DNA from: Deltaproteobacteria bacterium
GTDB taxonomy: Bacteria > Desulfobacterota > Binatia > HRBIN30 > JACQVA1
Assembly (NCBI GenBank): GCA_016178705.1
Contig: JACOST010000008.1
Span: 102,069-166,068 of the forward strand
Length of the DNA stretch: 64,000 nucleotides
Direction of reading: 5' to 3'
Shown here: positions 4,535-59,820 of the stretch, piece after piece
How positions within the stretch are numbered: the stretch's first letter is position 1
How the letters are laid out: each line of letters begins with the position of its first letter
Notes under the pieces: model-generated
Told to the model about the DNA's origin: nothing
The model's database searches: none
The model's input: only the letters and a program-made list of their open reading frames with translations
Program-made: the position numbers and the translations under genes

Positions 4535-7489
4535 CTACGAACCGAGGATTGCCTTCTTCGCATCAGCGAGTTCCTCGTCGCGGCCATGGTAGCCGCAAGC
4601 GTTGATGAGTTTCTCCGCTGCGGCGAGATCGGCTTGCGGCGATTCCCACGGATAAGCCGCCCCTTCATTTCGCATCCCGGAATCCGCATTCCGCATTCCA
4701 AAGAGCCGGGCGCGATGCAGGTGAATATCCGCCATGAACAGCCTCATGGGGCCGCGCTCGGCGATGTCCCAGGCTTCGTCCAGGTCGCTCTGGGCACTCT
4801 CGGGGCCGATGCGCGCGCCGGTGAGAAGCCGCAGCCAGGCGCGAGTGAGGAGGCCGAGGGGAATCATGTGCTGCGTGCCGGCGCGTCGGAGGCCGGCCAC
4901 GGCCTGATCAATTTCCGATTTCGGGTTTTGGATTTCGGACTTTTCCAAGATCACCGCGTAGAGCGCAGCGCGGCCCAGGGTGAGGTGGTGAAGCGCGAAG
5001 TCGAGAATAGGAGCGCCGCGCATTCCTTCCTCCCACTTGAGCGTCTGCGCCGCGCGCTGCTCGACCGCGCGGCATGCCTCAACCAATTTCGGATTTCGGA
5101 CTTCGGATTTCGAATTCAACAACAGTTCCCACGCGGCACGCTCCGCCTCCGTCAAGAGCAGGTCGCAATACTGGAAGCCCTGCACCGAATACAGCAGCGG
5201 GTAGCCGGGCTGACTCTCGGCCTGCATCTGCTCGGCCTCGCGGAAGCGCGCCTCCGCCTCGGCCCGGCGGCCCGCCTGGTGCAGGGCGTCGGCATGGGTC
5301 GTGCGCACAATATTCCACATGCCAGCATCGCCGCTGCGGTCGGCGTAGGTCACGGACTGCTCGGCGTCCCCCACCGCCCCGGCCACCTCGCCCAGCGTCA
5401 GCTCCAGCTCGCTCAGGTTGCTGGCGCCCGCGGCAGCGTGCTCCCAGTCCTTCTTCTTGGCCGCCCATTCTGTTGCAGCCCGCATCGGATCGAGGGCCTC
5501 GGTCAGCCGGCCCAAGGCGCGCAGGGTGAAGGCGGCTGCATTCAACAGCCAGGCTTGGTCGGCTTCCGTGAGCGCGGGCGAGACGCGGCTCCACGGGGTC
5601 TCGAAGAAGCAGGCGATCGCTCCCAGGTTGGAACCAAGCGCCCCGAGTTTTCTCACGCTATAGATTTCGTTTCCACGCTGGATGCGCGAGAAGAAGACCT
5701 TGTCACACGCCTCCTGCTGCCACCCCGCCTGGCAGCCGTGGGCCACGCTTTGGTAGAGCGGTTGGAGGTCTTCGAGGGTGGGCTGGTCGCCTTCCTTCGT
5801 GCTCGCGCAGAGGTGTTCGTAGAGCCGCCGGTGCGAGCCGCGCCAGGCCTCGGGCTGCCGCGTGCGGAGTTGCCGGGCGAAGTATTCGCGCAGCAGCGGG
5901 TGGGCATCCAGCGAGACCAGCGTGCCGGCCGCGTCCCGGTTCACCGTGAGTAGCTTCGCGGTCTCCAGCCGGGTGAGGGCCACGTTCCGCTGCGCCTCGC
6001 TGATCCGGACAAGCGCCCCGGTCAGGCCCGGGACGGCGGGAGCCTTCAGCAGCGCGGCCAGGCAGTCGGCGGTCGCGGGCCGGTCGAACAACCCGAGCAG
6101 TCGCAGTAGGGCGAGAGCGCGCTTGCCTTTCTCCCCCTCGCTTTCGTACGACAGCACATACGCATCCATCACACGGAAGGCGTGGCCGCCCTGTTCCTCG
6201 GCGTCGGCTTCCTCAAACTTCACGAGGTCGCGCTTGCGGATGTCCCCGGCATGCGCGTCGTGGAGGTAAGCGCCAAGCAGGTTCAAGGTGAGCGCGTGGC
6301 CTTGCACGTCTTCCACCAGCGCCGCGAATTCCTTTTGATTCCCCGTCACGCCGAGTCGCTTGAGCAGCGCCACGCCGGCGTCCTTGGACAGGCGCGTGAG
6401 CTTCACTTCCGGCGCGGTGGTCTGCCAGTAGGCGCGCAAGTCGGGGATGGAATACCGAGTGGTGACGACGCACAGGCCGTGGCTGGTGGCGGCCAGCCCT
6501 TTGAGCAGGGCGGCGAGACCCTGGTCTTTGAGTTCGCCCGGCGTGGGTGAGGTGGGCGCGTATTGCAGCGGCTCCAGGCCGTCGAGGATGAGCAGCGCCC
6601 GCCGCTCACCGACGAGCTGCGCCAGCCGCCGGCCTTTGTCGAACGCGCCCTGCGCACTGCCCGCCATCGCCGCGTCGCCGAAGAAGGTGAGCGCTTCCTT
6701 GAGAAACACGTCGGACGATGCCGCGGCCTGCTCGCGCGTGCCCTGGCTGTAGAAAGACCACGCGAAGACTGCGTCGCACCCCGACCAGTCCTGACCCGCC
6801 AACTCCGCCGCCCACTTCGCCACCAGCGAAGTCTTCCCCTCGCCGCCGAGGGCGACGAAGGTGAGCACGTGCGGGCGCGGTGCGGCGGCGTTGCGGACCT
6901 TCGCCCAGGCGTCGGAGAGCAGCTTTGTTTCCGCCTCGCGGCCGATGAGTTCCGCCGGGGCGTATTTGATGATGCGGGAGATGTCGAACCTGCTGGCAGG
7001 AGTCGGGGTCGAGTCGGGTGGTTTCCGTGGCGGGGTGATGCCTTGGTTGAGGGAGAGGCGCTTGAGAATCTCTTCCGCGATTTCCTTCGCGTTGCTGGTG
7101 TCGATGTCGATGTATCCATCTCCACTGAGAATGCCGAGTTCGGTAACATCTCCAGGGTTTCCGAAGCTGAGGAACATGATTCTCCGTGCCTCCACCGTGG
7201 CGAGCATCTGGCGGATGAATCTCCATTCAAGCCGGCACCAACGCTTGGCGGCATACTCCGGACAGAGAAAGAGCACGATCAGCTCCGACTGCGTGCGGTA
7301 GAGATTGGGCAGATAGACATCCAAGTCCGGCGCAGCGAATTCCGCCTGGTGGTACTTGTCGTAGAGTACCCGATCCGTGGTGAATTGGGCGGCCAGATGG
7401 CCTGCCACCTGTTTCACAAATTCCCGATGCTCGCCCGGAAACGAGAGGGCGACGTCGAAGCGGCGTGGAGTGTCCGCATCTGTACTCAT
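4535..7489 (-). CDS. TIR–NB-ARC (STAND NTPase)–TPR protein; bacterial NLR-like candidate antiphage defense protein
   Basis: 984 aa. The N-terminus (FDVALSFPGEHREFV...CPEYAAKRWCRLEW) is TIR-like. It is followed by Walker A LGGEGKTSL, Walker B LLILDGLE and a TTR motif (GLCVVTTRYS) typical of the NB-ARC/AP-ATPase clade. The C-terminal ~500 aa are TPR-like helical repeats with in-frame 7-aa repeats (KSEIQNP, GMRNADS). Confidence 0.7.
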   Translation of the reverse strand: MSTDADTPRRFDVALSFPGEHREFVKQVAGHLAAQFTTDRVLYDKYHQAEFAAPDLDVYLPNLYRTQSELIVLFLCPEYAAKRWCRLEWRFIRQMLATVEARRIMFLSFGNPGDVTELGILSGDGYIDIDTSNAKEIAEEILKRLSLNQGITPPRKPPDSTPTPASRFDISRIIKYAPAELIGREAETKLLSDAWAKVRNAAAPRPHVLTFVALGGEGKTSLVAKWAAELAGQDWSGCDAVFAWSFYSQGTREQAAASSDVFLKEALTFFGDAAMAGSAQGAFDKGRRLAQLVGERRALLILDGLEPLQYAPTSPTPGELKDQGLAALLKGLAATSHGLCVVTTRYSIPDLRAYWQTTAPEVKLTRLSKDAGVALLKRLGVTGNQKEFAALVEDVQGHALTLNLLGAYLHDAHAGDIRKRDLVKFEEADAEEQGGHAFRVMDAYVLSYESEGEKGKRALALLRLLGLFDRPATADCLAALLKAPAVPGLTGALVRISEAQRNVALTRLETAKLLTVNRDAAGTLVSLDAHPLLREYFARQLRTRQPEAWRGSHRRLYEHLCASTKEGDQPTLEDLQPLYQSVAHGCQAGWQQEACDKVFFSRIQRGNEIYSVRKLGALGSNLGAIACFFETPWSRVSPALTEADQAWLLNAAAFTLRALGRLTEALDPMRAATEWAAKKKDWEHAAAGASNLSELELTLGEVAGAVGDAEQSVTYADRSGDAGMWNIVRTTHADALHQAGRRAEAEARFREAEQMQAESQPGYPLLYSVQGFQYCDLLLTEAERAAWELLLNSKSEVRNPKLVEACRAVEQRAAQTLKWEEGMRGAPILDFALHHLTLGRAALYAVILEKSEIQNPKSEIDQAVAGLRRAGTQHMIPLGLLTRAWLRLLTGARIGPESAQSDLDEAWDIAERGPMRLFMADIHLHRARLFGMRNADSGMRNEGAAYPWESPQADLAAAEKLINACGYHGRDEELADAKKAILGS

Positions 7490-14819: not shown

Positions 14820-15473
14820 ATGCGGCGGTGGGTGGTAGCGGCCGCGGCCGTGACCGCGATTGGGCTGTCCGGATGCGGGCTGTTCGGAGGCCCGCGCCCT
14901 GCGTCGAGCAGCGCCGTTACCGGCACAACCCAGACCGGCATCGCGTCGTGGTACGGCCCAGGCTTTCATGGCAACCCAACGTCGAGCGGCGAGATCTTCG
15001 ACCAAGACGAGTTGACCGCCGCGCACCAGACGCTGCCATTGGGCACGCGCGTCGCGGTCACCAACATGGAGAACGGCCGCTCGGTTGAAGTTCGCGTCAA
15101 CGATCGCGGGCCGTTCGTCGACGGTCGCATTATCGATCTGTCGCATGCCGCGGCACGATCGCTCGGCATGATCGGACCAGGCACCGCCCCCGTCCGACTC
15201 GAAGTGCTCGGCCAGCGGAACGCCCGGACGGAGACCGCGGCATTCGCGCTCCAAGTCGGTGCGTTCGCCGATCCGCGCAACGCGGAACAGCTCAAAGCCA
15301 GCCTGGAGAAGCGATTCGCCTATGTCCGTGTGGCGACGCTCAAGGGCGAGCAAGGGTGCTACTACCGCGTACGCGTGGGACGGTTTGCGCGACGAGTTGA
15401 CGCGGTCGAGATCGCGCGCACGATCACACCGCTCGGGTTGCCCACCGTGATCGTCGAAGATCCGGGACCGTGA
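14820..15473 (+). CDS. rlpA: Septal ring lytic transglycosylase RlpA family lipoprotein (DPBB + SPOR domains)
   Basis: Lipoprotein signal ...IGLSGCG. DPBB region IASWYGPGFHGNPTSSGEIFD...TAAH. C-terminal SPOR-like region FALQVGAFADPRNAEQL. Confidence 0.75.
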   Translation: MRRWVVAAAAVTAIGLSGCGLFGGPRPASSSAVTGTTQTGIASWYGPGFHGNPTSSGEIFDQDELTAAHQTLPLGTRVAVTNMENGRSVEVRVNDRGPFVDGRIIDLSHAAARSLGMIGPGTAPVRLEVLGQRNARTETAAFALQVGAFADPRNAEQLKASLEKRFAYVRVATLKGEQGCYYRVRVGRFARRVDAVEIARTITPLGLPTVIVEDPGP

Positions 15474-16289: not shown

Positions 16290-17399
16290 ATGGATATCAC
16301 GCAGTTACTCACGTTCGCACATCAGCAAGGCGCCTCGGACGTTCATCTGAGCGCTGGCGAACCGCCGATGTTGCGTCTGCACGGGGACATGAAGCGGCTC
16401 GAACACGCTGCCCTGGGGGCGGAAGAGACCCGGCATATGGTGTTCGACATCATGTCGGACTCGGTACGCAAGGCCTACGACGAGACCCACGATGTCGATT
16501 TTTCCTTCGAGTTGGGCGATCTGGCGCGCTTCCGCGTCAACGTCTTTCGCCAACGCAAAGGCGATGCTGCGGTGTTCCGGCTCATCCCGTCAAAAGTCAT
16601 GACCATGGACCAGCTCAGCCTGCCCCCGATCTTGAAGGACATCTGCGAAAAGGAGAAGGGACTGGTGTTGGTGACCGGTCCGACCGGCTCGGGTAAATCG
16701 ACGACGCTGGCGGCCATGATCGACTTCATTAACATTACCTACGAAGGTCACATTCTGACCATCGAAGATCCGATCGAGTTCGTCCACGAATCGAAGAAGT
16801 GCCTGATCAACCAGCGCGAACTGGGCCCGCACACGCAGTCGTTTGCCAACGCATTGCGCGGCGCGCTGCGCGAGGATCCCGACGTGATTCTGGTCGGCGA
16901 AATGCGCGACCTCGAAACCATCTCGCTGGCGTTGACCGCGGCCGAAACCGGGCATTTGGTGTTCGCCACCGTCCACACCTCGAGCGCACCGAAGACGGTG
17001 GACCGAGTCATCGACGTGTTCCCTGCCGCGCAGCAAGAGCAAATCCGCACGATGTTTGCGGAGTCGATTCAGGCGGTCATCACCCAGACGTTGCTGAAGC
17101 AGCGCGTCGGCGGACGCATCGCGGCGTTGGAGATCCTGATGGGCACGCCGGCGGTGCGCAACCTAATCCGCGAAGGCAAGGTCCACCAGTTGCCATCGGC
17201 CATGCAGACGGGTCAGAATGTCGGCATGCAGACGCTGGACATGGCGCTGGTCGATCTGGTCAACAAGAACATGGTGACCATTGAAGAGGCGCAGTCCAAG
17301 ACCCTGACCCCCAACTTGTTCAAAGCCGCCGGTGGAGAAGCGCGAGCGAAGCTCGTACCGCCGCCCCGCTCCGCCAGCCCGCTGGTCGGACGCGCGTGA
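16290..17399 (+). CDS. pilT: Type IV pilus retraction ATPase PilT
   Basis: MDITQLLTFAHQQGASDVHLSAGEPPMLRLHGDM... with Walker A GPTGSGKST and the PilT family core. Confidence 0.85.
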   Translation: MDITQLLTFAHQQGASDVHLSAGEPPMLRLHGDMKRLEHAALGAEETRHMVFDIMSDSVRKAYDETHDVDFSFELGDLARFRVNVFRQRKGDAAVFRLIPSKVMTMDQLSLPPILKDICEKEKGLVLVTGPTGSGKSTTLAAMIDFINITYEGHILTIEDPIEFVHESKKCLINQRELGPHTQSFANALRGALREDPDVILVGEMRDLETISLALTAAETGHLVFATVHTSSAPKTVDRVIDVFPAAQQEQIRTMFAESIQAVITQTLLKQRVGGRIAALEILMGTPAVRNLIREGKVHQLPSAMQTGQNVGMQTLDMALVDLVNKNMVTIEEAQSKTLTPNLFKAAGGEARAKLVPPPRSASPLVGRA

Positions 17400-17406
17400 C
17401 CAATCG

Positions 17407-18576
17407 ATGCACGACATCCGAACGCTCCTGAGCGAGATGGGCGTGCGTGGCGCGTCCGACCTGTATCTCACCGCCGACAGTCCACCGGTGTTGCGCATCG
17501 AAGGCATCACGGAGAACTACGGGGACGAAATCCTCACCGCGCCCGAGGTCGAAGAGCTCGCCAACGCGGTAATGACCGAGCGCCAGCGTGCCACGTTCGA
17601 AGAGCGGCTCGAGATGAACCTCGCGTTGGCGTCCGGCCGGCTCGGCCGCTTTCGCGTCAACGTCTTCCGCCAACGCGGCGCGGTCGCCGTCGTAATCCGC
17701 CAAATCAAAACGCAGATTCCCAGCATCGACGAACTGTGCTTACCCGCAGTGCTGAAACGCATTGTGCTCAGTCGCCGCGGACTCGTGCTCGTCACCGGAG
17801 CCACCGGCTCCGGTAAATCGACGACCCAGGCCGCGATGATCGACTACCGTAACGATCACACCCGCGGTCACATCGTCACGATCGAAGATCCAATCGAATT
17901 TGTCCACCCGCACAAACACTGCCTCATCAGCCAACGCGAAGTCGGCTTCGACACCGTCTCGTTCAGCGAGGCCCTGCGTAACACCTTGCGCCAGGCACCG
18001 GACTTGATCCTGATCGGCGAAGTGCGCGACCTCGAGACGATGGAAGCCGCCATCACCTTCGCCGAGACCGGCCACCTGTGCGTCGCGACCCTCCACTCCA
18101 ACAATGCCAACCAGGCGATCGAGCGGGTGATGAACTTCTTCCCGGCGATGCGTCACCCGGAAATTTTCCTCCAACTGTCGCTCAATCTGCGCGCGATCAT
18201 CTCGCAGCGCCTGGTGCAGGGGGTCGATGGCAAACGGGTCGCTGGGCTCGAGATCCTGATCGATACGCCGCGCATCCGCGACCTGATCAAGAAGGGTGAG
18301 GTCGACGTCCTCAAAGACGCCATGCAGCAGAGCATGCTCGAAGGCGGGCAGACATTCGACCAGGCGCTCTACGATCTCTACGCCGAGGGTCGAATCACCG
18401 AAGAGCACGCGCTGGCCAACGCCGACAGCGCGAACAATCTGCGCATCCGCATCAAAAACCTCGACCTGCGCGAAGCCGCCAAGGCCGATGCCGGCAAGCC
18501 CTCTCGGCACAGCAAGCCTGACAAGGACGATTTGCGTATCGAAGGCGTCCCGACTGTCAACGTCCGCCGCCTGTAA
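17407..18576 (+). CDS. pilU: PilT-family ATPase paralog (PilU-like) with a ~40-aa basic C-terminal extension
   Basis: MHDIRTLLSEMGVRGASDLYLTADSPPVLRIEG... with Walker A GATGSGKST. Start at ATG 17407, in frame within the longer track ORF. Confidence 0.8.
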   Translation: MHDIRTLLSEMGVRGASDLYLTADSPPVLRIEGITENYGDEILTAPEVEELANAVMTERQRATFEERLEMNLALASGRLGRFRVNVFRQRGAVAVVIRQIKTQIPSIDELCLPAVLKRIVLSRRGLVLVTGATGSGKSTTQAAMIDYRNDHTRGHIVTIEDPIEFVHPHKHCLISQREVGFDTVSFSEALRNTLRQAPDLILIGEVRDLETMEAAITFAETGHLCVATLHSNNANQAIERVMNFFPAMRHPEIFLQLSLNLRAIISQRLVQGVDGKRVAGLEILIDTPRIRDLIKKGEVDVLKDAMQQSMLEGGQTFDQALYDLYAEGRITEEHALANADSANNLRIRIKNLDLREAAKADAGKPSRHSKPDKDDLRIEGVPTVNVRRL

Positions 18577-18592
18577 GGACCCGCGCCCGCGC

Positions 18593-19186
18593 TCAGTGGC
18601 CGGTTCGCGCCAACAAAATCCGCTTCGCGCTGCCGGCCACCGCCGAGGGAATGTTTTTACTCTTGGCGAGCAGACGGAGTTCGCGCTCACTCAGTGAGTT
18701 GACGAATTTCAACGCCACCGCGATTGGGGTCTTGGGGTTGCCGACCAACGCACTGCGTATCTGCGGATTGCGACCCCACTCCTTGTCGTCGCCGATGATG
18801 CGCAGCAGGTCCGCATCGATATTGCGGTTGCGTGAGACGGCTACGATCTCATCGTCGGTGATGCGGGGATTCTGCATGACGAAGCGCGGCACGATGTGGC
18901 TGGCATCGCGGATCAGGATGTTGCGCGCATCGCGATTGCCTTTCAACGCGAGCTTGATCTTCTCGCCGACGGTCAATCGCATGACTTGATTGTACAGGCT
19001 CTCGTTGATCTTCGGTTCCACCGGTTCGCCAGCGATCAACTCCTCGGGCGCGACTGGGGCCGGGCGTGGCGCCGATGCGGGCTCTGGATCTTCGATCAAG
19101 ACTTCGGGCAACTGATATGGATCCTCGCCGCGGTCGATCTGGTCGACGAGCGCAGCGAGTTCTTCGGCGCTGATCTCACCTGCCAT
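18593..19186 (-). CDS. Hypothetical protein with LRV/HEAT-like tandem helical repeats, translationally coupled to the EF-G paralog
   Basis: ATG overlaps the stop of the upstream EF-G-like gene (TAATG). Two repeats of the type NRDARNILIRD...NPRITDDEIVAV / NIDADLLRIIGDD...NPQIRSALVGNPKTP. The track ORF from 19408 is rejected as an extension. Confidence 0.4.
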   Translation of the reverse strand: MAGEISAEELAALVDQIDRGEDPYQLPEVLIEDPEPASAPRPAPVAPEELIAGEPVEPKINESLYNQVMRLTVGEKIKLALKGNRDARNILIRDASHIVPRFVMQNPRITDDEIVAVSRNRNIDADLLRIIGDDKEWGRNPQIRSALVGNPKTPIAVALKFVNSLSERELRLLAKSKNIPSAVAGSAKRILLARTGH

Positions 19187-21273
19187 TAGGCTTTCGCGGC
19201 GCGCGCCGCCTCCGCTTCTTTGACGATCTTCTCGGTGAGGTGCGCCGGCACTTCGTCGTAGTGATCGAACCCGATCGTGAACGAACCCCGGCCACTCGTC
19301 ATCGAGCGCAGGTCGGCGGCGTACTTGAGCACTTCCGCCATCGGAACGAGCGCACGAATCACCTGTCCACCCGCTTTGGTGTCCACACCGAGCACCTTGC
19401 CGCGACAACTGTTGAGGTCACCGATGACGTCACCCATGCAATCGTCCGGCACGGCGATCTCCATGGTCATCACGGGTTCGAGCAGGATCGGCTTGGCCTG
19501 GCTCATCGCGGCCTTGAACCCGAGCGACGCGGCGATCTTGAACGCCATTTCCGAGGAATCGACGGCATGAAACGAACCGTCGTACAGCGTCGCGCGGACA
19601 TCGACCACCGGGTAATGCGCCAGAATGCCTTCGCCGAGCGCTTCGCGGATGCCCTTTTCCACTGCCGGAATGAATTGCCGCGGGACCACGCCGCCGACTA
19701 TAGCATCGACGAACTCGAAGCCGCTACCGCGCGGCAGCGACTCGACCTTGAGCCAGGTGTCGGCGAACTGTCCGCGACCGCCCGATTGTTTCTTGAGTTT
19801 GCCCTGCGCCTCGGCGCGGCCCTTGATCGTCTCGCGATACGGAACCTTGGGCGCCTTGAGAGTGACCTCTACACCATACTTGCGCTTGAGCTTCTCGACC
19901 GCCACCTCGATGTGCAGCTGTCCGACACCCGACAGGATGATCTCGCGCGTCTCCGCATCGCGCGTCACGTGCAGCGTGAGATCTTCCTCCATCATCTTGT
20001 GCAGCGCCAGGGTCGCCTTCTCTTCGTCGCCCTTCGACTTGGGTTCCACCGCGAAGGACATCGACGTGGGGATCTCGATCAAGCCGGGATACAGGATGGG
20101 CGCCTTTTCATCCGCCAACGTATCGCCCGATGCGGTTTCCTTGAGCTTTGGCACCGCAACGATCTCGCCCGCGATCGCGTACGCGATTGCTTGCTGCTTC
20201 TTGCCTTCGAGTTTGAACAAGTGGCCGAAGCGCTCCTTGGCGTCGCGGCTGACGTTGAGCACCGTCGCGTCGGCGTTGACCCGGCCCGACAACACGCGAA
20301 ACACCGAGAGCTTGCCGGCGAACGGATCGACGATGGTCTTGAACACCAGCGCGGAGAACGGCTCATCGATCGCCGGGCGACGGCTGATCGGTTCGCGTAT
20401 TTTGGGATCGCGGCCCTCGGCCTCGCCCCGATCGGCGGGTGACGGCAAGTACGAAACGATCGCGTCGAGCAACGGGGGAATGCCGATGTTCTTCGCCGAC
20501 GAACCGCACAACACCGGCACCAGTTTGCCCGCGACCGTACCCACGTGCAGGGCGTGTTGGATCTCCTCGGTGGTCAACGCGCCCGCGTCGAGATATTTTT
20601 CGAGCAACTCATCGTCGGCTTCCGCCACCAGTTCCATGAGCTGCTCGCGCGCCGCCTTGGCGTCGGCCTGCATGTCGGCGGGAATCGGCTCCTCCGCCAT
20701 CGTGCCGTTCTCCTTCGCCACCAGCGCACGCATACCGACGAGGTCGATCACACCGCGAAACGTCTCCGCGGCGCCGAGCGGCAATTGAATCGGCACCGCC
20801 TTCGCACCGAGGATCGTCTTGAGATCGTCGACCGCCGCTGCGAAGTCGGCACGTTCACGATCCATCTTGGTCACAAACGCGATGCGCCCGAGTTGCAACT
20901 GATCGGCACGCTGCCACAGATTCTCGGCTTCGACTTTGATCTCGCCGTGCGCCGCAGCCAACACGAACACCAACCCGCTGGCGGCGCACATGCACGCCAG
21001 GGCGTCGGGGACGAAGTTGGCGTAGCCCGGCATGTCGAGCAGCGTGACATCGTGCTTACGCCAGGTCAGGTGATGAAACGCGGTGGTCAGTGTGAGTTGT
21101 CGACGCACTTCCTCCGGCTCGTGGCCGAAGGCGGAGGTGCCGTCATCGAGCCGCCCGATGCGTGTCGTGGCGCCGCCATCGAACAGCATGGTTTCTCCGA
21201 GGGCGGTCTTGCCGACACCGCCCTGACCAACAATGCCAAGGTTGCGAATCGATCCAACGTCCTCGACGGGCAT
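19186..21273 (-). CDS. Elongation factor G paralog (EF-G-like GTPase) with non-canonical G motifs
   Basis: 695 aa with the full five-domain EF-G architecture. The P-loop is GQGGVGKT (canonical AHIDAGKT), G3 is DMPGYANF (canonical DTPGHVDF, so Tyr replaces the catalytic His) and G4 is TKMD. Confidence 0.8.
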   Translation of the reverse strand: MPVEDVGSIRNLGIVGQGGVGKTALGETMLFDGGATTRIGRLDDGTSAFGHEPEEVRRQLTLTTAFHHLTWRKHDVTLLDMPGYANFVPDALACMCAASGLVFVLAAAHGEIKVEAENLWQRADQLQLGRIAFVTKMDRERADFAAAVDDLKTILGAKAVPIQLPLGAAETFRGVIDLVGMRALVAKENGTMAEEPIPADMQADAKAAREQLMELVAEADDELLEKYLDAGALTTEEIQHALHVGTVAGKLVPVLCGSSAKNIGIPPLLDAIVSYLPSPADRGEAEGRDPKIREPISRRPAIDEPFSALVFKTIVDPFAGKLSVFRVLSGRVNADATVLNVSRDAKERFGHLFKLEGKKQQAIAYAIAGEIVAVPKLKETASGDTLADEKAPILYPGLIEIPTSMSFAVEPKSKGDEEKATLALHKMMEEDLTLHVTRDAETREIILSGVGQLHIEVAVEKLKRKYGVEVTLKAPKVPYRETIKGRAEAQGKLKKQSGGRGQFADTWLKVESLPRGSGFEFVDAIVGGVVPRQFIPAVEKGIREALGEGILAHYPVVDVRATLYDGSFHAVDSSEMAFKIAASLGFKAAMSQAKPILLEPVMTMEIAVPDDCMGDVIGDLNSCRGKVLGVDTKAGGQVIRALVPMAEVLKYAADLRSMTSGRGSFTIGFDHYDEVPAHLTEKIVKEAEAARAAKA

Positions 21274-21285
21274 AGTCCCTCCAAG

Positions 21286-22053
21286 TCAGTTTCCGACACG
21301 ATTGCGTTCAAAAATCAGCCGCAGACCTTCCAGCGTGAGAAACTCGTCCACCTCTTCGATGGTTTCCGATTCCGGCGCCAACAGACCGGCGAAGCCGCCC
21401 GTCGCGATCACACGCCCACGCACGCCCTGTTCTTTCCGAATCCGCTCTACCAAGCCATCGACCATCGCCACATAGCCATAGATCAAACCGGATTGAATGG
21501 CATTCACCGTATTGCGCCCGACCACGTGCTTGGGCTTGGCCAACTCGACCCGGTAAAGCTTGGCGGCGCGCTCGAACAACGCCTCGCTGGCGATGCCCAA
21601 CCCCGGCGCGATGATGCCGCCGACGTACTCGCCCTTCTCCGAAATGTAGTCGAAGATCGTCGCGGTACTGAAATCCACGACGATGGTGGTGGTCCGCGTG
21701 CGCTCGAACGCGGCGATGGCGTTGACGATGCGGTCGGCACCGACTTCGCGCGGGTTGTCGTAGAGAATCGGCATGCCGGTCTTGACGCCAGGCCCGATGA
21801 ACAGCGGCGCCGTGCCGAGGTAGTCGCGGCACATTGCCTCGATCACACCCGTCATCGCCGGCACCACGCACGACACAGCGATGCCCGCGACCTGCGGTCC
21901 GAACTCCGCGCCGAGCAAGCCGCGGACGAGGAAACCGTATTCGTCGGCGGTTCGTTCCACGTCGGTCATCACCCGCCAATGCCGCCGCAAGCGCCTGCCC
22001 TCGTACAGTCCGAGCAGAGTCTGCGTGTTGCTTACGTCGATGGCCAGAAACAT
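21286..22053 (-). CDS. coaX: Type III pantothenate kinase, copy 1
   Basis: MFLAIDVSNTQTLLGLYEG... with the acetate/sugar kinase fold motifs of the CoaX family. Confidence 0.8.
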   Translation of the reverse strand: MFLAIDVSNTQTLLGLYEGRRLRRHWRVMTDVERTADEYGFLVRGLLGAEFGPQVAGIAVSCVVPAMTGVIEAMCRDYLGTAPLFIGPGVKTGMPILYDNPREVGADRIVNAIAAFERTRTTTIVVDFSTATIFDYISEKGEYVGGIIAPGLGIASEALFERAAKLYRVELAKPKHVVGRNTVNAIQSGLIYGYVAMVDGLVERIRKEQGVRGRVIATGGFAGLLAPESETIEEVDEFLTLEGLRLIFERNRVGN

Positions 22054-22070
22054 GGGCGCGGCTCCACTCC

Positions 22071-22835
22071 TCAGTTCATCGCGTTGCGCTTGTAGATCAG
22101 CCGAATGCCATCGAGGGTGAGGAACTCGTCGACTTCGTCAATGGTCGCCGATGCGGGCGCGAGCAAACTCGAGAACCCGCCGGTCGCGATGATGCGGGCC
22201 GTAACGCCGCACTCGCGCTGAATGCGCGCGACCAGTCCGTCGATCATCGCCACGTAGCCGTAGAACAGTCCCGATTGAATCGCGGTCATCGTGTTGCGGC
22301 CGACGACCTGCGATGGCTGGCTCAGCTCGACCCGCGAGAGCAGCGCGGCGCGGGCGAACAGCGCGTCACTCGCGATGCCGACGCCCGGGGCGATGACTCC
22401 GCCGATGTACTCGCCGTCGGCCGAGATGTATTCGAACTTGGTCGCCGTGCCGAGATCGACCACGATGGTAGCAGCGTGTGTCCGCTCGTAGGCCGCGACC
22501 GCGTTCACGATGCGGTCGGCGCCGAGTTGGCGCGGGTCGTCGTACAGGATCGCCATACCGGTCTTGATGCCGGGCCCGACGAAGAGCGGCGCCAGCCCCA
22601 AGTAGTCGTGGCACACGGTGGCGATCGTTCCAGTCATCGCCGGCACCACCGAAGCCACCGCGACGCCGGCGAGGCCGCTCCCGGTCGATTCGCCGAGCAG
22701 ACTGCGCAACAGAAACCCGTACTCATCGGCGGTGCGCGCGGGCTCGGTGACCAACCGCCAGTGGCGCTGCAACCGCGCACCGTCGTAGAGCCCGAGCACC
22801 GTGTTCGAGTTGCCGATGTCGATGGCGAGCATCAT
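22071..22835 (-). CDS. coaX: Type III pantothenate kinase, copy 2 (tandem paralog, about 70% aa identity to copy 1)
   Basis: MMLAIDIGNSNTVLGLYDG... ATG at 22835; the upstream extension in the track is rejected. Confidence 0.75.
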   Translation of the reverse strand: MMLAIDIGNSNTVLGLYDGARLQRHWRLVTEPARTADEYGFLLRSLLGESTGSGLAGVAVASVVPAMTGTIATVCHDYLGLAPLFVGPGIKTGMAILYDDPRQLGADRIVNAVAAYERTHAATIVVDLGTATKFEYISADGEYIGGVIAPGVGIASDALFARAALLSRVELSQPSQVVGRNTMTAIQSGLFYGYVAMIDGLVARIQRECGVTARIIATGGFSSLLAPASATIDEVDEFLTLDGIRLIYKRNAMN

Positions 22836-22842
22836 GGCTGAC

Positions 22843-23676
22843 TTAGTCGGTCCTCGCCTCTCGCAATTGATCGTAGCCACCCAACACGGTCACGTCGCCC
22901 GCCACCACGCGGCACTCGCGGCCATCGGCGCCACGCACGCGCAAGGCTCCATCATCGGCCAAGCCCAGCGCGACCCCCTCGATACGTTCCGACTTTCCAT
23001 GCACATCGCTCTGCACCACAATCGGCTGGTCCGTCAAACACGAGAAGCGCTCCCATTCGGGCGCCAACGTCGCAAACCCATCGCGCTGCCATTGATCGTA
23101 GCGTGCCTCGCAGCGGTTCAACAGCCGCGCCGTGAAGCGTGCGCGATCGATCGCCGCGCCGGTGATCATCGACAGCGAGGTGGCGATGCCGCGCACCGCG
23201 GGTGGAAAATCCTCGGGCGCGCTGTTGAGGTTGACACCGATGCCGGGGATGACGAAACGGACGCCGGACTCGTCCGCCACCATCTCGGTGAGAATGCCCG
23301 CCAGCTTGCGCCCGCCGCTGACCAGATCGTTCGGCCATTTGATCGCGACGTTCGATGTCCACTCGCGGACGGTCTCGGCGGCGGCGAGACCCACAACCAA
23401 GGTGAGCTGTGGAATCACTTCGGACGGCAGCCTCGGCCGCAACACCAACGACAGATAGAGATTGCGCTGCGGCGGCGACACCCACTGCCGGCCCAGCCGT
23501 CCACGCCCGCGGCGTTGACTCTCCGCGATCACCACGGTGCCCTCTTCCGCGCCCGCCTCGGCCAACTCGCGCGCGGTTGTGTTGGTCGAGTCGACCTCCT
23601 CGAACACGTGCAGGCGGCGACCGAAGCGCCGCGTCGTCAGGTGCGGCTCGATGTCGGTGGCCTGCATGCCATTCAC
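22843..23676 (-). CDS. birA: Biotin--[acetyl-CoA-carboxylase] ligase BirA (no obvious N-terminal HTH)
   Basis: ...ESQRRGRGRLGRQWVSPP... is the GRGRxGRxW BirA motif. Classic birA-coaX adjacency. Confidence 0.8.
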   Translation of the reverse strand: MNGMQATDIEPHLTTRRFGRRLHVFEEVDSTNTTARELAEAGAEEGTVVIAESQRRGRGRLGRQWVSPPQRNLYLSLVLRPRLPSEVIPQLTLVVGLAAAETVREWTSNVAIKWPNDLVSGGRKLAGILTEMVADESGVRFVIPGIGVNLNSAPEDFPPAVRGIATSLSMITGAAIDRARFTARLLNRCEARYDQWQRDGFATLAPEWERFSCLTDQPIVVQSDVHGKSERIEGVALGLADDGALRVRGADGRECRVVAGDVTVLGGYDQLREARTD

Positions 23677-24548: not shown

Positions 24549-24554
24549 GTCCGT

Positions 24555-27221
<2,667 letters not shown>

Positions 27222-27961: not shown

Positions 27962-28365
27962 GCACCACACGCCGGGCAGTGGTTCCAGGCGTAAGGCTTC
28001 GCCGGATGGATCTCGTTGTCCAGCCGCCCCTGCGCACCACCGAATGCATGGTAGAGGAGGCATTCCTTTTCGTAAGCGGCCGTTGCATTAGGAAAGTGGC
28101 CGTACATGAAGTACCGGTATTTGCCGATCCAATCCTTCAGACGGCCGTTCAAGTCGTCGTCGGATCGTCCGGCATAGCGAATGGTCAGCGAGTTATCGGG
28201 AAGGAGCACATCACCAAGAAGATAAGCGCCGATCGACCTGCTGACGTTCGCATCAATTTCTGAGCGTGTCAGGCTAAAGATTCCGGAAAGACCAGTTGCA
28301 ATTGCCATTGCAAACCTCATCATCTGCGGTTCGTGACCGCCGTAAAGGACTTGCCAGGAATTCAT
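27958..28365 (-). CDS. Hypothetical protein, weak GIY-YIG-nuclease-like motif spacing, C-terminal CxxC
   Basis: GIFSL...AYLLG...R...YRYFMYGHF...AYEKECLLYHAF...N and a C-terminal NHCPACGA. The resemblance to GIY-YIG is by eye only. Co-oriented and immediately downstream of the HTH-HATPase-STAS gene. Confidence 0.25.
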   Translation of the reverse strand: MNSWQVLYGGHEPQMMRFAMAIATGLSGIFSLTRSEIDANVSRSIGAYLLGDVLLPDNSLTIRYAGRSDDDLNGRLKDWIGKYRYFMYGHFPNATAAYEKECLLYHAFGGAQGRLDNEIHPAKPYAWNHCPACGA

Positions 28366-28524
28366 GGACTCGCTAAGAAGGCTTCTGCTCGGCTAATTCT
28401 GGCAAACCCGAGTTGATACCACCGACAAGGCCGCTGCGTGGGGCAGCGGCCTTGTCGCCTTGATGGGACTGAATCTTCTTGTACGGCACTTCCAGATAAG
28501 CGTCCTCCCTTCCCCTTCTGCACT

Positions 28525-29652
28525 CTAAGCTATTTCCGTCTCCCCCTTTGGGCGCGGTCCTTCGCCATTCTCGCTCAGTGGCGTCATGCCGGGCAGAAAT
28601 GGTGTTTCGGTATTGCCGCCGTCGCTCTTGACGTGCAGAATCATTCGCACCACGTCGGAACTAGCGTTCACTTGCCAGATGTGAATGTCTGGATGCTCGC
28701 GGGCGAACACTCGAAATATCTCGTCAGCGAATCCCTGGCCAATACTTTCAACCCCAGAGAAGTCGAGAACGACCTCCCTAAAGTGGTCAACCCGCTTGAG
28801 GAGTCGGCGCGCCTGCGATCGAGAAACCAGCATCTCGCCGTCATGCTGAGCAAGGCTTGCGACCAAGTGGGTGCGCGTAAACCCGTAGTGGTCGGTGCTC
28901 GGCGCAAATTGGTTGAACACTTCCAACGCTGTTCGCAGCGACAGAGGATGGATGGTCATGTGGACATGGGTCCCTGCCGCTGGGGCCGGGTCTATCTCTA
29001 ACAGCCAGTCCTTTTCGTCACGGTGCGCGAAGTACAACTGGGCCGACATGATGCCGAACAGATCGAACATCCTGGAAGTAAAAAAGATGCCTTCGCCACT
29101 GTGGTGGGCATGGTCGGTTGTGAGTTTTCCCTTTGAGAGTTCCAATACAGCGTGTCGCGGATCATCAAGTCCGAAGGCCCTTTGGAGCTTGGCGAAGATT
29201 CCGACGCCGTGGTCGACGACGGTCAGCCCGATCGCTGCGGCCGTGCGGCTGATACCAACGACAAATGCGGGAGACTCTGAATGCACGATCGCGTTGTTCA
29301 CGATTTCCGTGATCCCGTGTTGACAAATGGTTCGCACGTTTGCCGGTACGTCCTTCAGGTGCGGTAGAATCTCATTTCGCCATACCTCATCTTCGTTGAC
29401 GCCAGGACCGATCTCTCGTCGTGCGACATGGTTCACCAGTTGGGCGAGACAATACGATCTGCCCTTTGTATCTCCATTGGGAATGAGCCAACCCATCTGG
29501 ACAAGATCATGTAGGTGGCGATGTACTGCCTGCCGACTCACATCGAAGTGTTCCGCAGTCACTCTGGCGATGTCACCAGGATGGGCCGCGACATTGTCCA
29601 CAATCCACCGCTGCATGGACTCCTGCTCTGACATGGCCGTATTTGAAACCAT
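28525..29652 (-). CDS. HTH – GHKL (HATPase_c, RsbW/SpoIIAB-like) – STAS-like (DUF4325) fusion protein
   Basis: N-terminal wHTH (DIARVTAEHFDVSRQAVHRHLHDL). GHKL N-box ITEIVNNAIVHS, G1 VVDHGVGIF, G2 HHSGEGIFF. C-terminal VVLDFSGVESIGQGFADEIFRVF...VNASSDVVRMI matches the DUF4325 consensus. Confidence 0.55.
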   Translation of the reverse strand: MVSNTAMSEQESMQRWIVDNVAAHPGDIARVTAEHFDVSRQAVHRHLHDLVQMGWLIPNGDTKGRSYCLAQLVNHVARREIGPGVNEDEVWRNEILPHLKDVPANVRTICQHGITEIVNNAIVHSESPAFVVGISRTAAAIGLTVVDHGVGIFAKLQRAFGLDDPRHAVLELSKGKLTTDHAHHSGEGIFFTSRMFDLFGIMSAQLYFAHRDEKDWLLEIDPAPAAGTHVHMTIHPLSLRTALEVFNQFAPSTDHYGFTRTHLVASLAQHDGEMLVSRSQARRLLKRVDHFREVVLDFSGVESIGQGFADEIFRVFAREHPDIHIWQVNASSDVVRMILHVKSDGGNTETPFLPGMTPLSENGEGPRPKGETEIA

Positions 29653-29797
29653 GATCGCGCGTTTGTCAACCTACACGCTTTGATTTGGCAACGGGACATG
29701 GTAGATTTGCGCCGTTCTTCGGTTTTTGGTGGTAACGATGGCTCCAAATAGTCAATTGATGCTTGACACTCAAGCAAAAATATCATATACTCCGGGC

Positions 29798-30652
29798 ATG
29801 AACAGATTGCCCCTAGCCAAGCGCGCCCAAATCCTCTCGCTGCTCTGTGAAGGTTCGTCGATGCGCTCAGTGTCGCGGCTCGTGGACGTGTCGATCAACA
29901 CCGTCACCCGCGAGCTGATCCTTGCCGGCCAGGCATGCACGGCATTCCACGATCAGGTGGTGCGCAACGTGAACTCCAAGCGCATTCAGTGTGATGAGAT
30001 TTGGTCGTTCTGCTACTCCAAGGCGAAAAACGTCCCGGAAGAGAAGCGAGGGAAGTTCGGGTACGGCGACGTGTGGACGTGGACGGCAATCGACGCCGAT
30101 TCCAAGCTCTGTCTTTCGTGGTTTCTTGGCGGACGCGATGCGGGCGCGGCCTACTACTTCATGATGGACCTATCGGAACGCCTCACGTCGCGCGTGCAAC
30201 TCACGACCGACGGGCACAAGACGTACCTCAGCGCCGTTGAATCCGCGTTTGGCATCGGGATCGACTATGCGATGCTGGTGAAGATTTACGGCGCATCGCC
30301 CGAGGGCGAAACGCGCTACAGCCCAGCGGTCTGCATCGGCACCGAACGCCACGCGGTCACGGGCGACCCGGACCCCGAGCACATTTCAACGAGCTACGTG
30401 GAACGCTCAAACCTCACGATGCGGATGCACATGCGCCGCTTTACTCGCCTCACCAACGCCTTCTCGAAGAAGATCGAGAACCACGGCCACATGGTTGCGC
30501 TCTATACGGTCTGGTACAACTTCGTGAGAATCCACAAGACGCTGCGGATGAGTCCGGCGATGGCTGCTGGTGTTACGTCGGCCCTCTTGTCGATGGAAAA
30601 CGTGGTCGAGATGGTCGATCAGTGGGAAGCGGCGAAAAAGACCGCGACGTGA
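29798..30652 (+). mobile_element. IS1-family transposase (single-ORF form with HTH + DDE)
   Basis: CDEIWSF...TTDGHKTY...ERSNLTMRMHMRRFTRLTNAFSKKIENH parallels E. coli IS1 InsB (DEQWGY...TDGWPLY...[28 protein letters not shown]). There is an AT-rich stretch just upstream (29770-29795). Terminal inverted repeats are not defined. Confidence 0.7.
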
Positions 30653-58101: not shown

Positions 58102-58956
58102 TTATGCCGCCTGCTCGGTCTGCTCCCCGAGCTGGTACCGCGCGAAGCGCTTGACCGTTATCGATCCACCGACCCGCTTCACGACCTCCGCCAACCACGT
58201 GCTCACGGAGCGATCGGGGTCCTTGATGAACGGCTGTTCGAGCAAGCAGACATCTCTGAAAAACTTGTCCAACTTGCCGGTCACCATCTTCTCGATCACT
58301 GCGTCGGGCTTTCCCGAGGTGGCGGCTTGAGCGCGATAGATGGCGCGCTCGCCATCGAGGACATCGACCGCCACTTCCTCACGGCGGACGTAGCGCGGAT
58401 TCGCCGCAGCGACTTGCATCGCGAGATCGCGGACCAGTTGGGCGCAATCCGCTGAATTCGTGATCGCTCCGTCGCGGGCCAGTTCGAGCAGCACGCCGAT
58501 CTTGCCGCCAGCGTGGATGTAGGAGCCGACTAACCCGCCGTTCGCCGGTGATTCGAAGCGCGCCGCCCGGCGCATCACGACGTTCTCGCCAGTCTTCGCC
58601 ACCGCAGTGGTAATCAGCTCACCCAGATTCACGTCGGCGCCATGCGTCAACACTTGTTGGGCCGCCTGCTCGACCAGCGCGCCGAATTCGGGCGTGCGGG
58701 CGACGAAATCGGTTTCGCAGTTCACTTCGACCAGGGCGCCGACCGTGCCGTCGCCATTGCTGGCCGCGACGATCAGACCTTCGCTCGCCACGCGGGTGGC
58801 GCGTTTCGCCGCCGCGGCGAGTCCCTTCTCGCGCAGTACGACGATCGCCTTTTCGAGGTCGCCTGCACTGTCGGCGAGCGCCCGCTTGCAATCCATCATT
58901 CCCGCCCCGGTCTTATCGCGCAGTTCGCGAACCAGGGCGGCGCTGACTTCACTCAC
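58102..58956 (-). CDS. tsf: Elongation factor Ts
   Basis: [28 protein letters not shown]... GTG start overlaps the rpsB stop (GTGA). The 450-aa track ORF is rejected as an upstream extension. Confidence 0.85.
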
Positions 58957-59735
58957 TGCACCATCCCTCCTTCGACAGTGGCCGCGGGGGCCACCTGGCT
59001 CGGGCCGGCGTCGTCGGCAACCTGGTCGCTCACACCCTTGGCGCGCTCTTCGGCGCGTGCGCGACCTTCGAGGACCGCATCCGCGATCGCCCCGCAGAAC
59101 AGACGAATGGCGCGGATGGCGTCGTCGTTGCCGGGGATCTTGTGATCGATCACGTCGGGGTCGCAGTTGGTGTCGACCACCGCGACCACCGGGATGTGGA
59201 GCTTGTTGGCTTCCTTGACCGCGATCTCTTCCTTCTGCGGGTCGATCACAAACAGCGCGTCGGGCAGCTTGCGCATGTTCTTGATTCCACCGAGGGCACC
59301 GAGGAGCTTGTCGCGCTCGCGACTGACGTTGAGCATTTCCTTCTTGGTGAGAGCTTGGGCCATCACCGGGTTCTCGAGCGTCTCTTCGCACTTCTTCAAC
59401 TTGTCGATGCTCTGCTTGATGGTTTGGAAGTTCGTGAGGGTGCCGCCCAGCCAACGGGTGTTGACGTAGAACATGCCGCAGCGGTCGGACTCTTCCTTGA
59501 TCGCGTCCTGGGCTTGCTTCTTGGTGCCGACAAACAGGACGTGGCCGCCCTGGGCCGCCACTTCGCGCACGAACGCGTAGGCGTTCTCGAAGAGCTTTAC
59601 CGTCTGCTGCAGATCGATGATGTAGATGCCGTTGCGGGCGCCAAAGATGTACGGCTTCATCTTTGGGTTCCAGCGGCTCGTTTGGTGGCCGAAGTGCACA
59701 CCGGCCTCCAAGAGCTGCTTCATGCTCACTTCCAT
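58953..59735 (-). CDS. rpsB: 30S ribosomal protein S2
   Basis: [26 protein letters not shown]... ATG 59735 preceded by GGAGAGGAGA. Confidence 0.9.
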
Positions 59736-59820
59736 ACAGATCTCCTCTCCAACATTCAGAACCGGGTCAGATTCAAGAGCACAGAGATAACAGAAAGGGA
59801 ATTCCTCAGGCAACCGCCCG

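Follow-up and report, generated by a model that had tools for sequence, protein, structure and literature searches.

A helical-repeat protein of an unnamed family is regularly encoded next to an elongation factor assigned to EFG II, with tyrosine at the catalytic-histidine position

Does a tyrosine in place of the catalytic histidine mark an elongation factor G of unusual chemistry, and what does it mean that the stop codon of its gene runs into the start codon of a repeat-protein gene? Both questions are raised by a locus within the 64,000-nucleotide stretch of DNA analysed here (the window), for which the original prediction described a full-length EF-G-like protein carrying the motifs GQGGVGKT, DMPGYANF and TKMD and a His-to-Tyr exchange. 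Five Pfam domains and the motifs read directly in the DNA agreed with this description, and the exchange was located by an ungapped alignment to Thermus thermophilus EF-G. The features of the gene are as follows.

19186–21273, minus strand: EF-G2 (EFG II subfamily) gene, 695 aa, five EF-G domains (ORF list, Pfam, NCBIfam NF009381, signature residues)
21277–21282, minus strand: Shine-Dalgarno sequence GGAGGG, 3 nt 5′ of the EF-G2 ATG (read from the sequence)
21205–21228, minus strand: G1/P-loop GQGGVGKT, residues 16–23, followed by Ala-Leu, which puts Leu at EFG II "position 25" (translated DNA, residue mapping)
21013–21036, minus strand: G3/switch II DMPGYANF (ungapped alignment to T. thermophilus EF-G)
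21022–21024, minus strand: Tyr84 codon TAC in place of the catalytic His (codon read in the DNA)
20860–20871, minus strand: G4 TKMD, residues 135–138 (translated DNA)

The GTP_EFTU, EF-G_D2, EFG_III, EFG_IV and EFG_C domains each scored above their Pfam cutoffs. In the alignment to T. thermophilus EF-G, Tyr84 paired without gaps with the catalytic His, and the nucleotide-binding elements were intact, including the P-loop GKT, the switch-I Thr, DxxG, T/NKxD and SAK (the G2 and G5 motifs read RQLTL and GSSAK, respectively). The same alignment showed that the acidic G′ region and both domain-IV tip loops used by canonical EF-G, SGGRGQF and YDGSFHAVDSSE, were kept. The His/Asp/Ile constellation of canonical EF-G was absent and replaced by Tyr84, Gly19 and Gly18. 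The gene lies outside any str operon (rpsL-rpsG-fusA-tuf), and no second EF-G homologue was present in the 64-kb window.

The subfamily was assigned by comparison with published residues specific for EFG II (Gly16, Leu25, Thr291, Gly333 and Lys/Arg352) and EFG I (Ala, Thr, Ile, Ala and Gly at the same positions) (Margus et al. 2011, PMC3150367). The window protein carries all five EFG II residues (Gly16, Leu25, Thr291, Gly333 and Lys352), and T. thermophilus EF-G-1 has A, T, I, A and G. EFG II conserves GhxxxGKT in G1, DxPG in G3 with no requirement for His, NKxD in G4 and gSAx in G5, while its G2 motif RGITI is relaxed, taking the form RxxT/SI in the delta-proteobacterial variant (PMC3150367), with which RQLTL agrees. 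The G motifs of the window protein follow this pattern, the deviations being Gln at the second position of G1 and Thr at the first position of G4, and its non-str gene context is likewise that of EFG II. The best NCBIfam model was NF009381 (PRK12740.1-5, "elongation factor G"), which matched residues 4–691 at 894.6 bits against a cutoff of 583. UPGMA clustering of 150 representatives placed all of them in one cluster, and the EFG II assignment therefore rests on the published signature residues. Judged by these residues, the window gene is an EFG II (EF-G2) member from a Binatia-like genome and belongs to the "delta-proteobacterial" type, which has diverged little.

GQGGxGKT together with DxPGY occurred in 120 of the 120 close homologues, and since all of them carry these motifs, the Tyr and the P-loop are neither a sequencing error nor a chance event. 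At the catalytic-His position, the 150 nearest 50%-identity cluster representatives most often carry Tyr (70, followed by Phe in 28 and His in 11), so that Tyr or Phe was found in 98 of the 150. A unique catalytic variant was also rejected, since Tyr is present in the EF-G2 proteins of T. thermophilus (PDB 1WDT) and Mycobacterium smegmatis as well. At the first position of G4, 118 representatives have N, 14 have S and 13 have T, and Gln instead of the usual His at the second position of G1, the deviation seen in the window protein, was found in 9 of the 150. Thus, EFG II proteins typically have Tyr in place of the catalytic His and a P-loop of the form GxxxxGKT-A/T-L. The description of the P-loop as non-canonical holds only relative to EF-G I: GQGGVGKT is a regular Walker A motif (GxxxxGKT) whose first Gly is typical of EFG II. 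Tyr-for-His has already been described for EF-G2, the window gene is an ordinary member of that family, and the exchange places the gene there while leaving current understanding unchanged.

What is new at this locus is the consistent co-encoding of EF-G2 with an unnamed helical-repeat protein. The TAATG overlap claimed between EF-G2 and the downstream repeat-protein frame was confirmed, and the surrounding genes are arranged as follows.

18593–19186, minus strand: partner gene, 197 aa, unnamed family (homologues, AlphaFold model, charge and conservation, fold searches)
19184–19188, minus strand: TAATG stop/start overlap, EF-G2 TAA with partner ATG (read from the sequence)
21286–22053, minus strand: type III pantothenate kinase (coaX), copy 2, directly upstream of EF-G2 (Pfam Pan_kinase, E = 1.7e-69)
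22071–22880, minus strand: type III pantothenate kinase (coaX), copy 1, start codon uncertain (Pfam Pan_kinase, E = 3.1e-71)
22843–23676, minus strand: biotin protein ligase, birA-like (Pfam BPL_LplA_LipB)

Upstream of EF-G2 lie coaX, birA, nadC and valS, and downstream lie the solenoid gene and convergent pilT genes. The partner combines an acidic N-terminal tail (residues 1–62, pI 4.05) with a basic alpha-solenoid (residues 63–197, pI 10.9, 10 conserved Lys/Arg), for which AlphaFold predicted a helical-repeat fold at a pLDDT of 87.3. It matched no Pfam or NCBIfam family, its homologues are named only "hypothetical", and fold searches with the model returned generic solenoids only; LRV and HEAT/ARM alpha-solenoids (PDB 1LRV, Pfam LRV_2 PF25591) are the closest known kind. 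Literature searches for LRV with EF-G, EF-G2 or fusA2 yielded no paper containing either LRV term, and a search for Binatia with elongation factor yielded nothing relevant.

The explanation we favour, and hold to be probable, is that the window encodes an auxiliary EFG II factor whose GTPase would be slowed or triggered in another way and which is coupled to the partner. EF-G2 would bind GTP and the ribosomal factor-binding site and could promote translocation, as its conserved elements suggest. Because the His/Asp/Ile constellation is missing, its ribosome-activated GTP hydrolysis may be slower or differently triggered. Its role would be that of an auxiliary elongation factor, or of one used under stress or energy limitation, beside a canonical EF-G presumably encoded elsewhere in the genome. 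The birA-coaX-coaX-EF-G2-partner genes are probably transcribed as one unit; scanning of positions 18300–24700 detected no promoter-like site, and terminator-like sites there were no more frequent than expected by chance. Translational coupling across the overlap would allow the 197-aa partner to be made in fixed proportion with EF-G2, and the likeliest role of the partner is that of an rRNA-binding or EF-G2-binding accessory working alongside EF-G2 on the ribosome.

The main competitor of this explanation concerns the second question and holds that the adjacency of EF-G2 and the partner is an inherited gene order without joint function, the 1-nt overlap being ordinary operon packing; the solenoid would then belong functionally with coaX/birA, the SPOR protein, the MglA-like GTPase or PilT. 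Short stop/start overlaps are indeed common in compact bacterial operons. The wider synteny extends beyond the pair: birA-coaX-EF-G2-partner order was found in at least 45 loci, and most related loci have coaX ahead of EF-G2. A search through the long family members and a 1040-aa EF-G turned up no fusion of EF-G2 with the partner. A SPOR-domain gene separated EF-G2 from the partner in 12 loci, 10 of which continue with an MglA-like GTPase, and in 7 of 80 partner loci EF-G2 was absent upstream, coaX still being present upstream in 5 of these 7. The partner is therefore not strictly tied to EF-G2, and the conserved order could reflect inherited synteny. Against this, 73 of 80 species-level genomes from Binatia and other "delta" lineages have an EF-G2-type gene ahead of the partner on the same strand, an arrangement kept while EF-G2 identity fell to ~40%. 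The junction was a stop/start overlap in 37 of the 80 loci, mostly as part of the birA-coaX-EF-G2-partner order, and a gap of 0–50 nt in 19 more (56 loci within these limits together). In addition, the partner has no other same-strand downstream neighbour in the window, since the pilT genes are convergent. Overall, we judge inherited order without joint function to be quite possible, at somewhat below an even chance.

The stronger form of the favoured explanation would make the His-less EF-G2 of Binatia and "delta" lineages and its co-translated acidic-tail/basic-solenoid protein a two-protein module, with the solenoid acting as a ribosome-bound co-factor. The solenoid could, for example, dock EF-G2 or tether it to idle ribosomes; it could also trigger GTP hydrolysis by EF-G2 or its release, standing in for the missing catalytic His. 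We advance the module tentatively and consider it unlikely in this specific form; if true, bacterial EF-G paralogues would thereby gain their first described accessory protein. More broadly, in one EF-G2 branch the next gene downstream nearly always encodes a basic helical-repeat protein not yet described, and the two reading frames frequently overlap at stop and start. Should this partner turn out to be a co-factor of EF-G2, it would offer a handle on the role of the widespread His-less EF-G paralogues.

EF-G2 proteins from Thermus, Mycobacterium and Bacteroides have been studied, with differing conclusions on their activity. T. thermophilus EF-G-2 (PDB 1WDT/2DY1), the reference EFG II structure, has in common with the window protein all five EF-G domains, a Tyr where the catalytic His would be (DAPGYGDF), a P-loop that begins with Gly and is followed by Leu25, the residues Gly333 and Lys352, and a TKxD G4 motif (TKLD and TKMD, respectively). 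However, identity between the two is only ~40%, the P-loop of 1WDT reads GHAGSGKT, with His second, compared to GQGGVGKT, position 291 is Val rather than Thr, the 1WDT protein is 30 residues shorter, and no solenoid partner is known for it. [quoted passage not shown]

M. smegmatis EF-G2 (PDB 9K0Z/9K10) is likewise an EFG II-type paralogue with Tyr in switch II (DTPGYADF) and a gene outside the str operon, its Y98 standing where EF-G1 has H88. This protein has altered SRL-contacting residues, minimal ribosome-dependent GTPase and a stress-specific role, and an H88Y change has been linked to loss of GTPase. These properties raise a second alternative, namely that the window EF-G2 is also a GTPase-dead, non-translocating ribosome binder that occupies the factor site of the 70S or 50S particle under stress. 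The shared Tyr agrees with this, as does the replacement of both the Asp and the Ile of the canonical P-loop by Gly. In contrast, the mycobacterial protein has diverged far more than the window protein, which scored 600 bits with T. thermophilus EF-G and only 436 bits, in two stretches, with 9k0z. The window protein also failed the EF-G2 equivalog model NF009377 (PRK12740.1-1; 564 bits against a cutoff of 890), showing that it is no equivalog of that particular EF-G2 clade. Its domain-IV tip loops and G′ acidic patch are those of canonical EF-G, and the Thermus protein with the same Tyr was reported active. We therefore regard a GTPase-dead binder as rather unlikely.

A third point of reference is the second EF-G of Bacteroides thetaiotaomicron, EF-G2, for which slow translocation is described, and which supplies the concept of a low-energy auxiliary translocase. 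It reportedly operates independently of GTP hydrolysis and comes into use during carbon starvation, a finding attributed to Han et al. 2023. The corresponding model NF058620 (EFG2_Bacteroid) matched the window protein at 491 bits against a cutoff of 1000, its best stretch covering only residues 6–512, and this partial match far under the cutoff places the protein outside the Bacteroides EF-G2 clade, whose specific insertion we take to be absent from it. With conflicting reports on the GTPase activity of related proteins, the EF-G2 sequence does not tell which hydrolysis phenotype to expect. The proposal of altered hydrolysis is thus qualified, as Tyr alone does not predict activity when published EF-G2s range from active (Thermus) to GTPase-poor (Mycobacterium). 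The same range, together with the link to stress, makes the idea of a specialised factor plausible and in agreement with the published family, although the Tyr signature, as the EFG II norm, is no peculiarity of this gene.

It is very improbable that the window EF-G2 is the main canonical translocase that has merely drifted at its catalytic residue. Its length and domain order equal those of canonical EF-G (EFG I; T. thermophilus 1DAR, E. coli FusA), from which it also retains the tip loops and the G′ region. Its ~43% identity to T. thermophilus EF-G-1 is slightly above that to EF-G-2, and it exceeded the cutoff of the canonical EF-G model TIGR00484 (693.1 against 659.4 bits). However, canonical EF-G has AHIDAGKTT and DTPGH where the window protein has GQGGVGKTAL and DMPGY, and the window protein is further set apart by domain-II residues of the EFG II kind and by the location of its gene outside the str operon. 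The complete set of five EFG II residues argues against a main translocase, as does the better score of a model from the PRK12740 series, which also holds the model named EF-G2. Moreover, a lone EF-G gene is always EFG I (Margus et al. 2011, PMC3150367). Finally, a Tet(M)/Tet(O)-type ribosomal protection protein has a practically negligible chance. In its favour there is only the weak homology to tet_protect models that any EF-G homologue shows. Against it, the tetracycline ribosomal protection model NF012153 gave 273 bits against a cutoff of 775, the specific Tet models fell far under their cutoffs, and the protein is as long as EF-G, with a domain IV of the EF-G type. The passed TIGR00484 cutoff explains the database name "elongation factor G" given to relatives of the window protein, a plain label by which annotation pipelines hide the auxiliary-paralogue status of this clade.

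GGAGGG precedes the start ATG of the minus-strand ORF at 19186..21273, which begins 12 nt past the stop codon of the upstream coaX gene. Translation of the DNA confirmed the G1, G3 and G4 variants that the original prediction had ascribed to an EF-G paralogue.

EF-G2 gene and its motifs (window coordinates)
19186..21273, minus strand: EF-G2 gene, 695 aa (ORF; all five EF-G domains in Pfam)
21205-21228, minus strand: G1, GQGGVGKT (DNA translation)
21013-21036, minus strand: G3, DMPGYANF, with Tyr84 encoded by TAC at 21022-21024 (DNA translation)
20860-20871, minus strand: G4, TKMD (DNA translation)

In its N-terminal part, the G domain aligned without gaps to T. thermophilus EF-G (phmmer), pairing "givgqggvgkt" with "giaahidagkt" and "lldmpgyanf" with "iidtpghvdf" (T. 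thermophilus EF-G second). Tyr84 therefore occupies the exact position of the catalytic His, as had been proposed.

Bacterial EF-G proteins were previously divided into EFG I, spdEFG1, spdEFG2 and EFG II, the last defined by five differentially conserved positions in the numbering of the T. thermophilus EF-G-2 structure, 1WDT (Margus et al. 2011, PMC3150367).

Positions distinguishing EFG II from EFG I (1WDT numbering; PMC3150367)
Position 16: Gly in EFG II, Ala in EFG I
Position 25: Leu in EFG II, Thr in EFG I
Position 291: Thr in EFG II, Ile in EFG I
Position 333: Gly in EFG II, Ala in EFG I
Position 352: Lys/Arg in EFG II, Gly in EFG I

When the window protein was aligned with T. thermophilus EF-G-1 and with 1WDT, the full sequence of which was checked against PDB, it carried G, L, T, G and K at these positions, compared to A, T, I, A and G in EF-G-1. 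Its top NCBIfam model was NF009381 (PRK12740.1-5; 894.6 bits, cutoff 583), which belongs to the same series as the model named "EF-G2" (PRK12740.1-1) and scored well above the canonical TIGR00484 (693.1 bits). The protein missed the cutoffs of the clade-specific EF-G2 model NF009377 (564 bits, cutoff 890) and the Bacteroides EF-G2 model NF058620 (491 bits, cutoff 1000), and therefore falls within the subfamily, outside those two clades. The gene is located outside a str operon, and no second EF-G homologue was found within the 64-kb window. Judged by its sequence, it is a member of the known EF-G2/EFG II family, and its Tyr is a standard signature of that family. A Tet protection protein was rejected, as the window protein fell short of the NCBIfam Tet protection models.

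GQGGxGKT and DxPGYxxF were present in every one of the 120 nearest database proteins (64-96% identical, mainly from MAGs of Candidatus Binatia and "Deltaproteobacteria"), ruling out a sequencing error or a private oddity. Among the 150 best aligned hits from a search of 1.84 billion cluster representatives, the catalytic-His column held Tyr in 70, Phe in 28, Asp in 11, His in 11, Ser in 6 and a few other residues; thus, lack of the His was the rule among relatives and Tyr its most frequent replacement. The first P-loop residue was Gly in 110 of these 150 proteins, and "position 25" was Leu in 120.

The same Tyr is found in T. thermophilus EF-G-2 (LLDAPGYGDF, P-loop GHAGSGKTTL) and in M. smegmatis EF-G2 (9K0Z; LIDTPGYADF). 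In the latter, "the catalytic H88 is replaced by Y98", which is directed away from the gamma-phosphate, and the H88Y mutation in EF-G1 almost abolished GTPase activity, while B. thetaiotaomicron EF-G2 supports slow translocation (2026 preprint, 10.64898/2026.05.25.727771). Thermus EF-G-2 is an active ribosome-dependent GTPase (PMC3150367; 10.64898/2026.05.25.727771). Hence the His-to-Tyr substitution is already known, and its consequence is context-dependent. The suggestion of a specialised rather than canonical factor agrees with this literature, but the Tyr by itself does not imply it, given that Thermus EF-G-2 is active with the same residue.

Relative to T. thermophilus EF-G, the window protein kept GKT, the switch-I Thr (in its G2, RQLTL), the Asp and Gly of DxxG, TKMD, SAK, the acidic G' stretch (AEADDELLEKYLD...EE) and the domain-IV tip loops (SGGRGQF and YDGSFHAVDSSE, versus TGGRGQY and YDGSYHEVDSSE in EF-G). 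Compared with EFG I, it lost the catalytic His (to Tyr) and the P-loop Asp and Ile (hydrophobic gate), both replaced by Gly; T. thermophilus EF-G-2 likewise lacks all three. The best reading of this pattern is an auxiliary translocase that would bind GTP and the ribosome, with GTP hydrolysis slowed or triggered differently. A binder resembling M. smegmatis EF-G2, unable to hydrolyse GTP or to translocate, appears less likely, because the window protein is far nearer to canonical EF-G (600 bits against T. thermophilus EF-G, 436 against 9K0Z).

The EF-G2 gene ends in a TAA (19188-19186) whose last base is also the first of the ATG (19186-19184) opening the 197-aa partner ORF at 18593..19186 (minus strand), as originally noted. 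The partner matched nothing in Pfam, NCBIfam or a PDB profile search; its homologues (230 by single-sequence and 483 by profile search) were all named "hypothetical", and none had a Pfam domain. Residues 1-62 are acidic (pI 4.05) with a conserved G-x-D-x-Y-x-V-P motif, and residues 63-197 are basic (pI 10.9) with ten Lys/Arg conserved at 90% or more. The longer relatives (about 320-400 aa) carry extra repeats in place of the acidic tail and one scored above the Pfam LRV_2 cutoff, so that the earlier label of LRV/HEAT-like is fair for the fold class. We classify the conserved domain (motifs KLALxGN, NPRIT, NPKTP and AKSKN) as an undescribed family.

A scan with the alignment of the partner across 185,579 species-representative genomes yielded 314 relatives; the 80 loci retained came from Binatia, Desulfuromonas, Geoalkalibacter and MAGs labelled Deltaproteobacteria, Thermodesulfobacteriota, Polyangiaceae or Myxococcales. 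A same-strand EF-G2-type gene preceded the partner in 73 of them, mostly encoding GQGG/GHGG...GKT and DxPGY, with Phe in a few.

Junction between the EF-G2-type gene and the partner gene in 80 loci
Stop/start overlap: 37 loci (22 of 4 nt, 12 of 8 nt, 2 of 1 nt, 1 of 11 nt, by our start calls)
Gap of 0-50 nt: 19 loci
Gap of 51-250 nt: 5 loci
Gap of ~1.1 kb with another gene inside: 12 loci
EF-G2 absent upstream: 7 loci

The gene inside the ~1.1-kb gap encoded a SPOR-domain membrane protein, and an MglA-like GTPase gene followed the partner in 10 of these 12 loci. The order birA-coaX (one or two copies)-EF-G2-partner recurred in at least 45 of the 80 loci and is shared by the window, with nadC and valS ahead of birA; no promoter-like sites were found in 18300-24700, and terminator-like sites were not in excess there. 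The pairing frequency, the junctions and the recurrent order argue that the pairing is old and strongly conserved, with translational coupling typical. This conserved, mostly overlapping co-encoding with an unnamed solenoid protein is the part that merits follow-up.

The partner can also occur without a neighbouring EF-G2: coaX was still upstream in 5 of the 7 exceptional loci (L057, L066, L071, L074 and L080), followed by the solenoid gene with no EF-G2-like gene between. Inherited synteny without joint function is thus a serious alternative. We found no EF-G2-partner fusion proteins and no paper linking such a solenoid protein to EF-G2. That the partner, with its acidic tail and basic solenoid, serves as an EF-G2 accessory factor is a candidate role that we consider rather unlikely.

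The coaX genes (type III pantothenate kinase) directly upstream of EF-G2 are tandem in the window (21286..22053 and 22071..22880, minus strand); this duplication recurred in 15 or more of the 80 loci, the remaining loci having a single copy. In one Binatia MAG (JBGPIT01) the solenoid gene has a paralogue: EF-G2 accompanies the copy at L039 but not the one at L052. In a sister clade (L058, L060, L065, L067-L070 and L072; for example L058:2012-7370), the order was coaX, a small TPR protein, an EF-G2-like protein, a SPOR-domain membrane protein, a ~400-aa solenoid and an MglA-like GTPase of the Ras family that is extended at its C terminus. The EF-G2-like protein there has G1 GFGASGKT and G3 "DTPSQDGF"; with neither the Tyr nor the Gly of DxxG present, it seems more degenerate than its counterpart in the window. 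In Desulfuromonas/Geoalkalibacter-type loci, SPOR-domain proteins sit between EF-G2 and the solenoid gene, and the window has an RlpA-like lipoprotein gene (14820..15473, plus strand) with DPBB_1 and SPOR domains; this recurrence may be coincidental. A tandem pair of genes for PilT-like ATPases (T2SSE family; 16290..17399 and 17332..18576, plus strand) converges on the 3′ end of the solenoid gene, the stop codons being only 16 nt apart; L001 and L005, the closest relatives, have such a convergent pilT pair too.

Elsewhere in the window, a 984-aa ORF (4535..7489, minus strand) has an N-terminal TIR domain (TIR_2, 32.4 bits) with no further Pfam match, and may function in defence or signalling. 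The G+C content falls to 0.552 in 28001..30000, which holds an ORF at 28525..29652 (minus strand), compared to about 0.62-0.66 in the remaining window. Finally, the EF-Ts domain of a mechanically listed 450-aa ORF (58102..59454, minus strand) is restricted to residues 239-444 and its 5′ part overlaps a long ORF in a different frame (58953..59813); the true tsf start is probably far downstream of the listed one.
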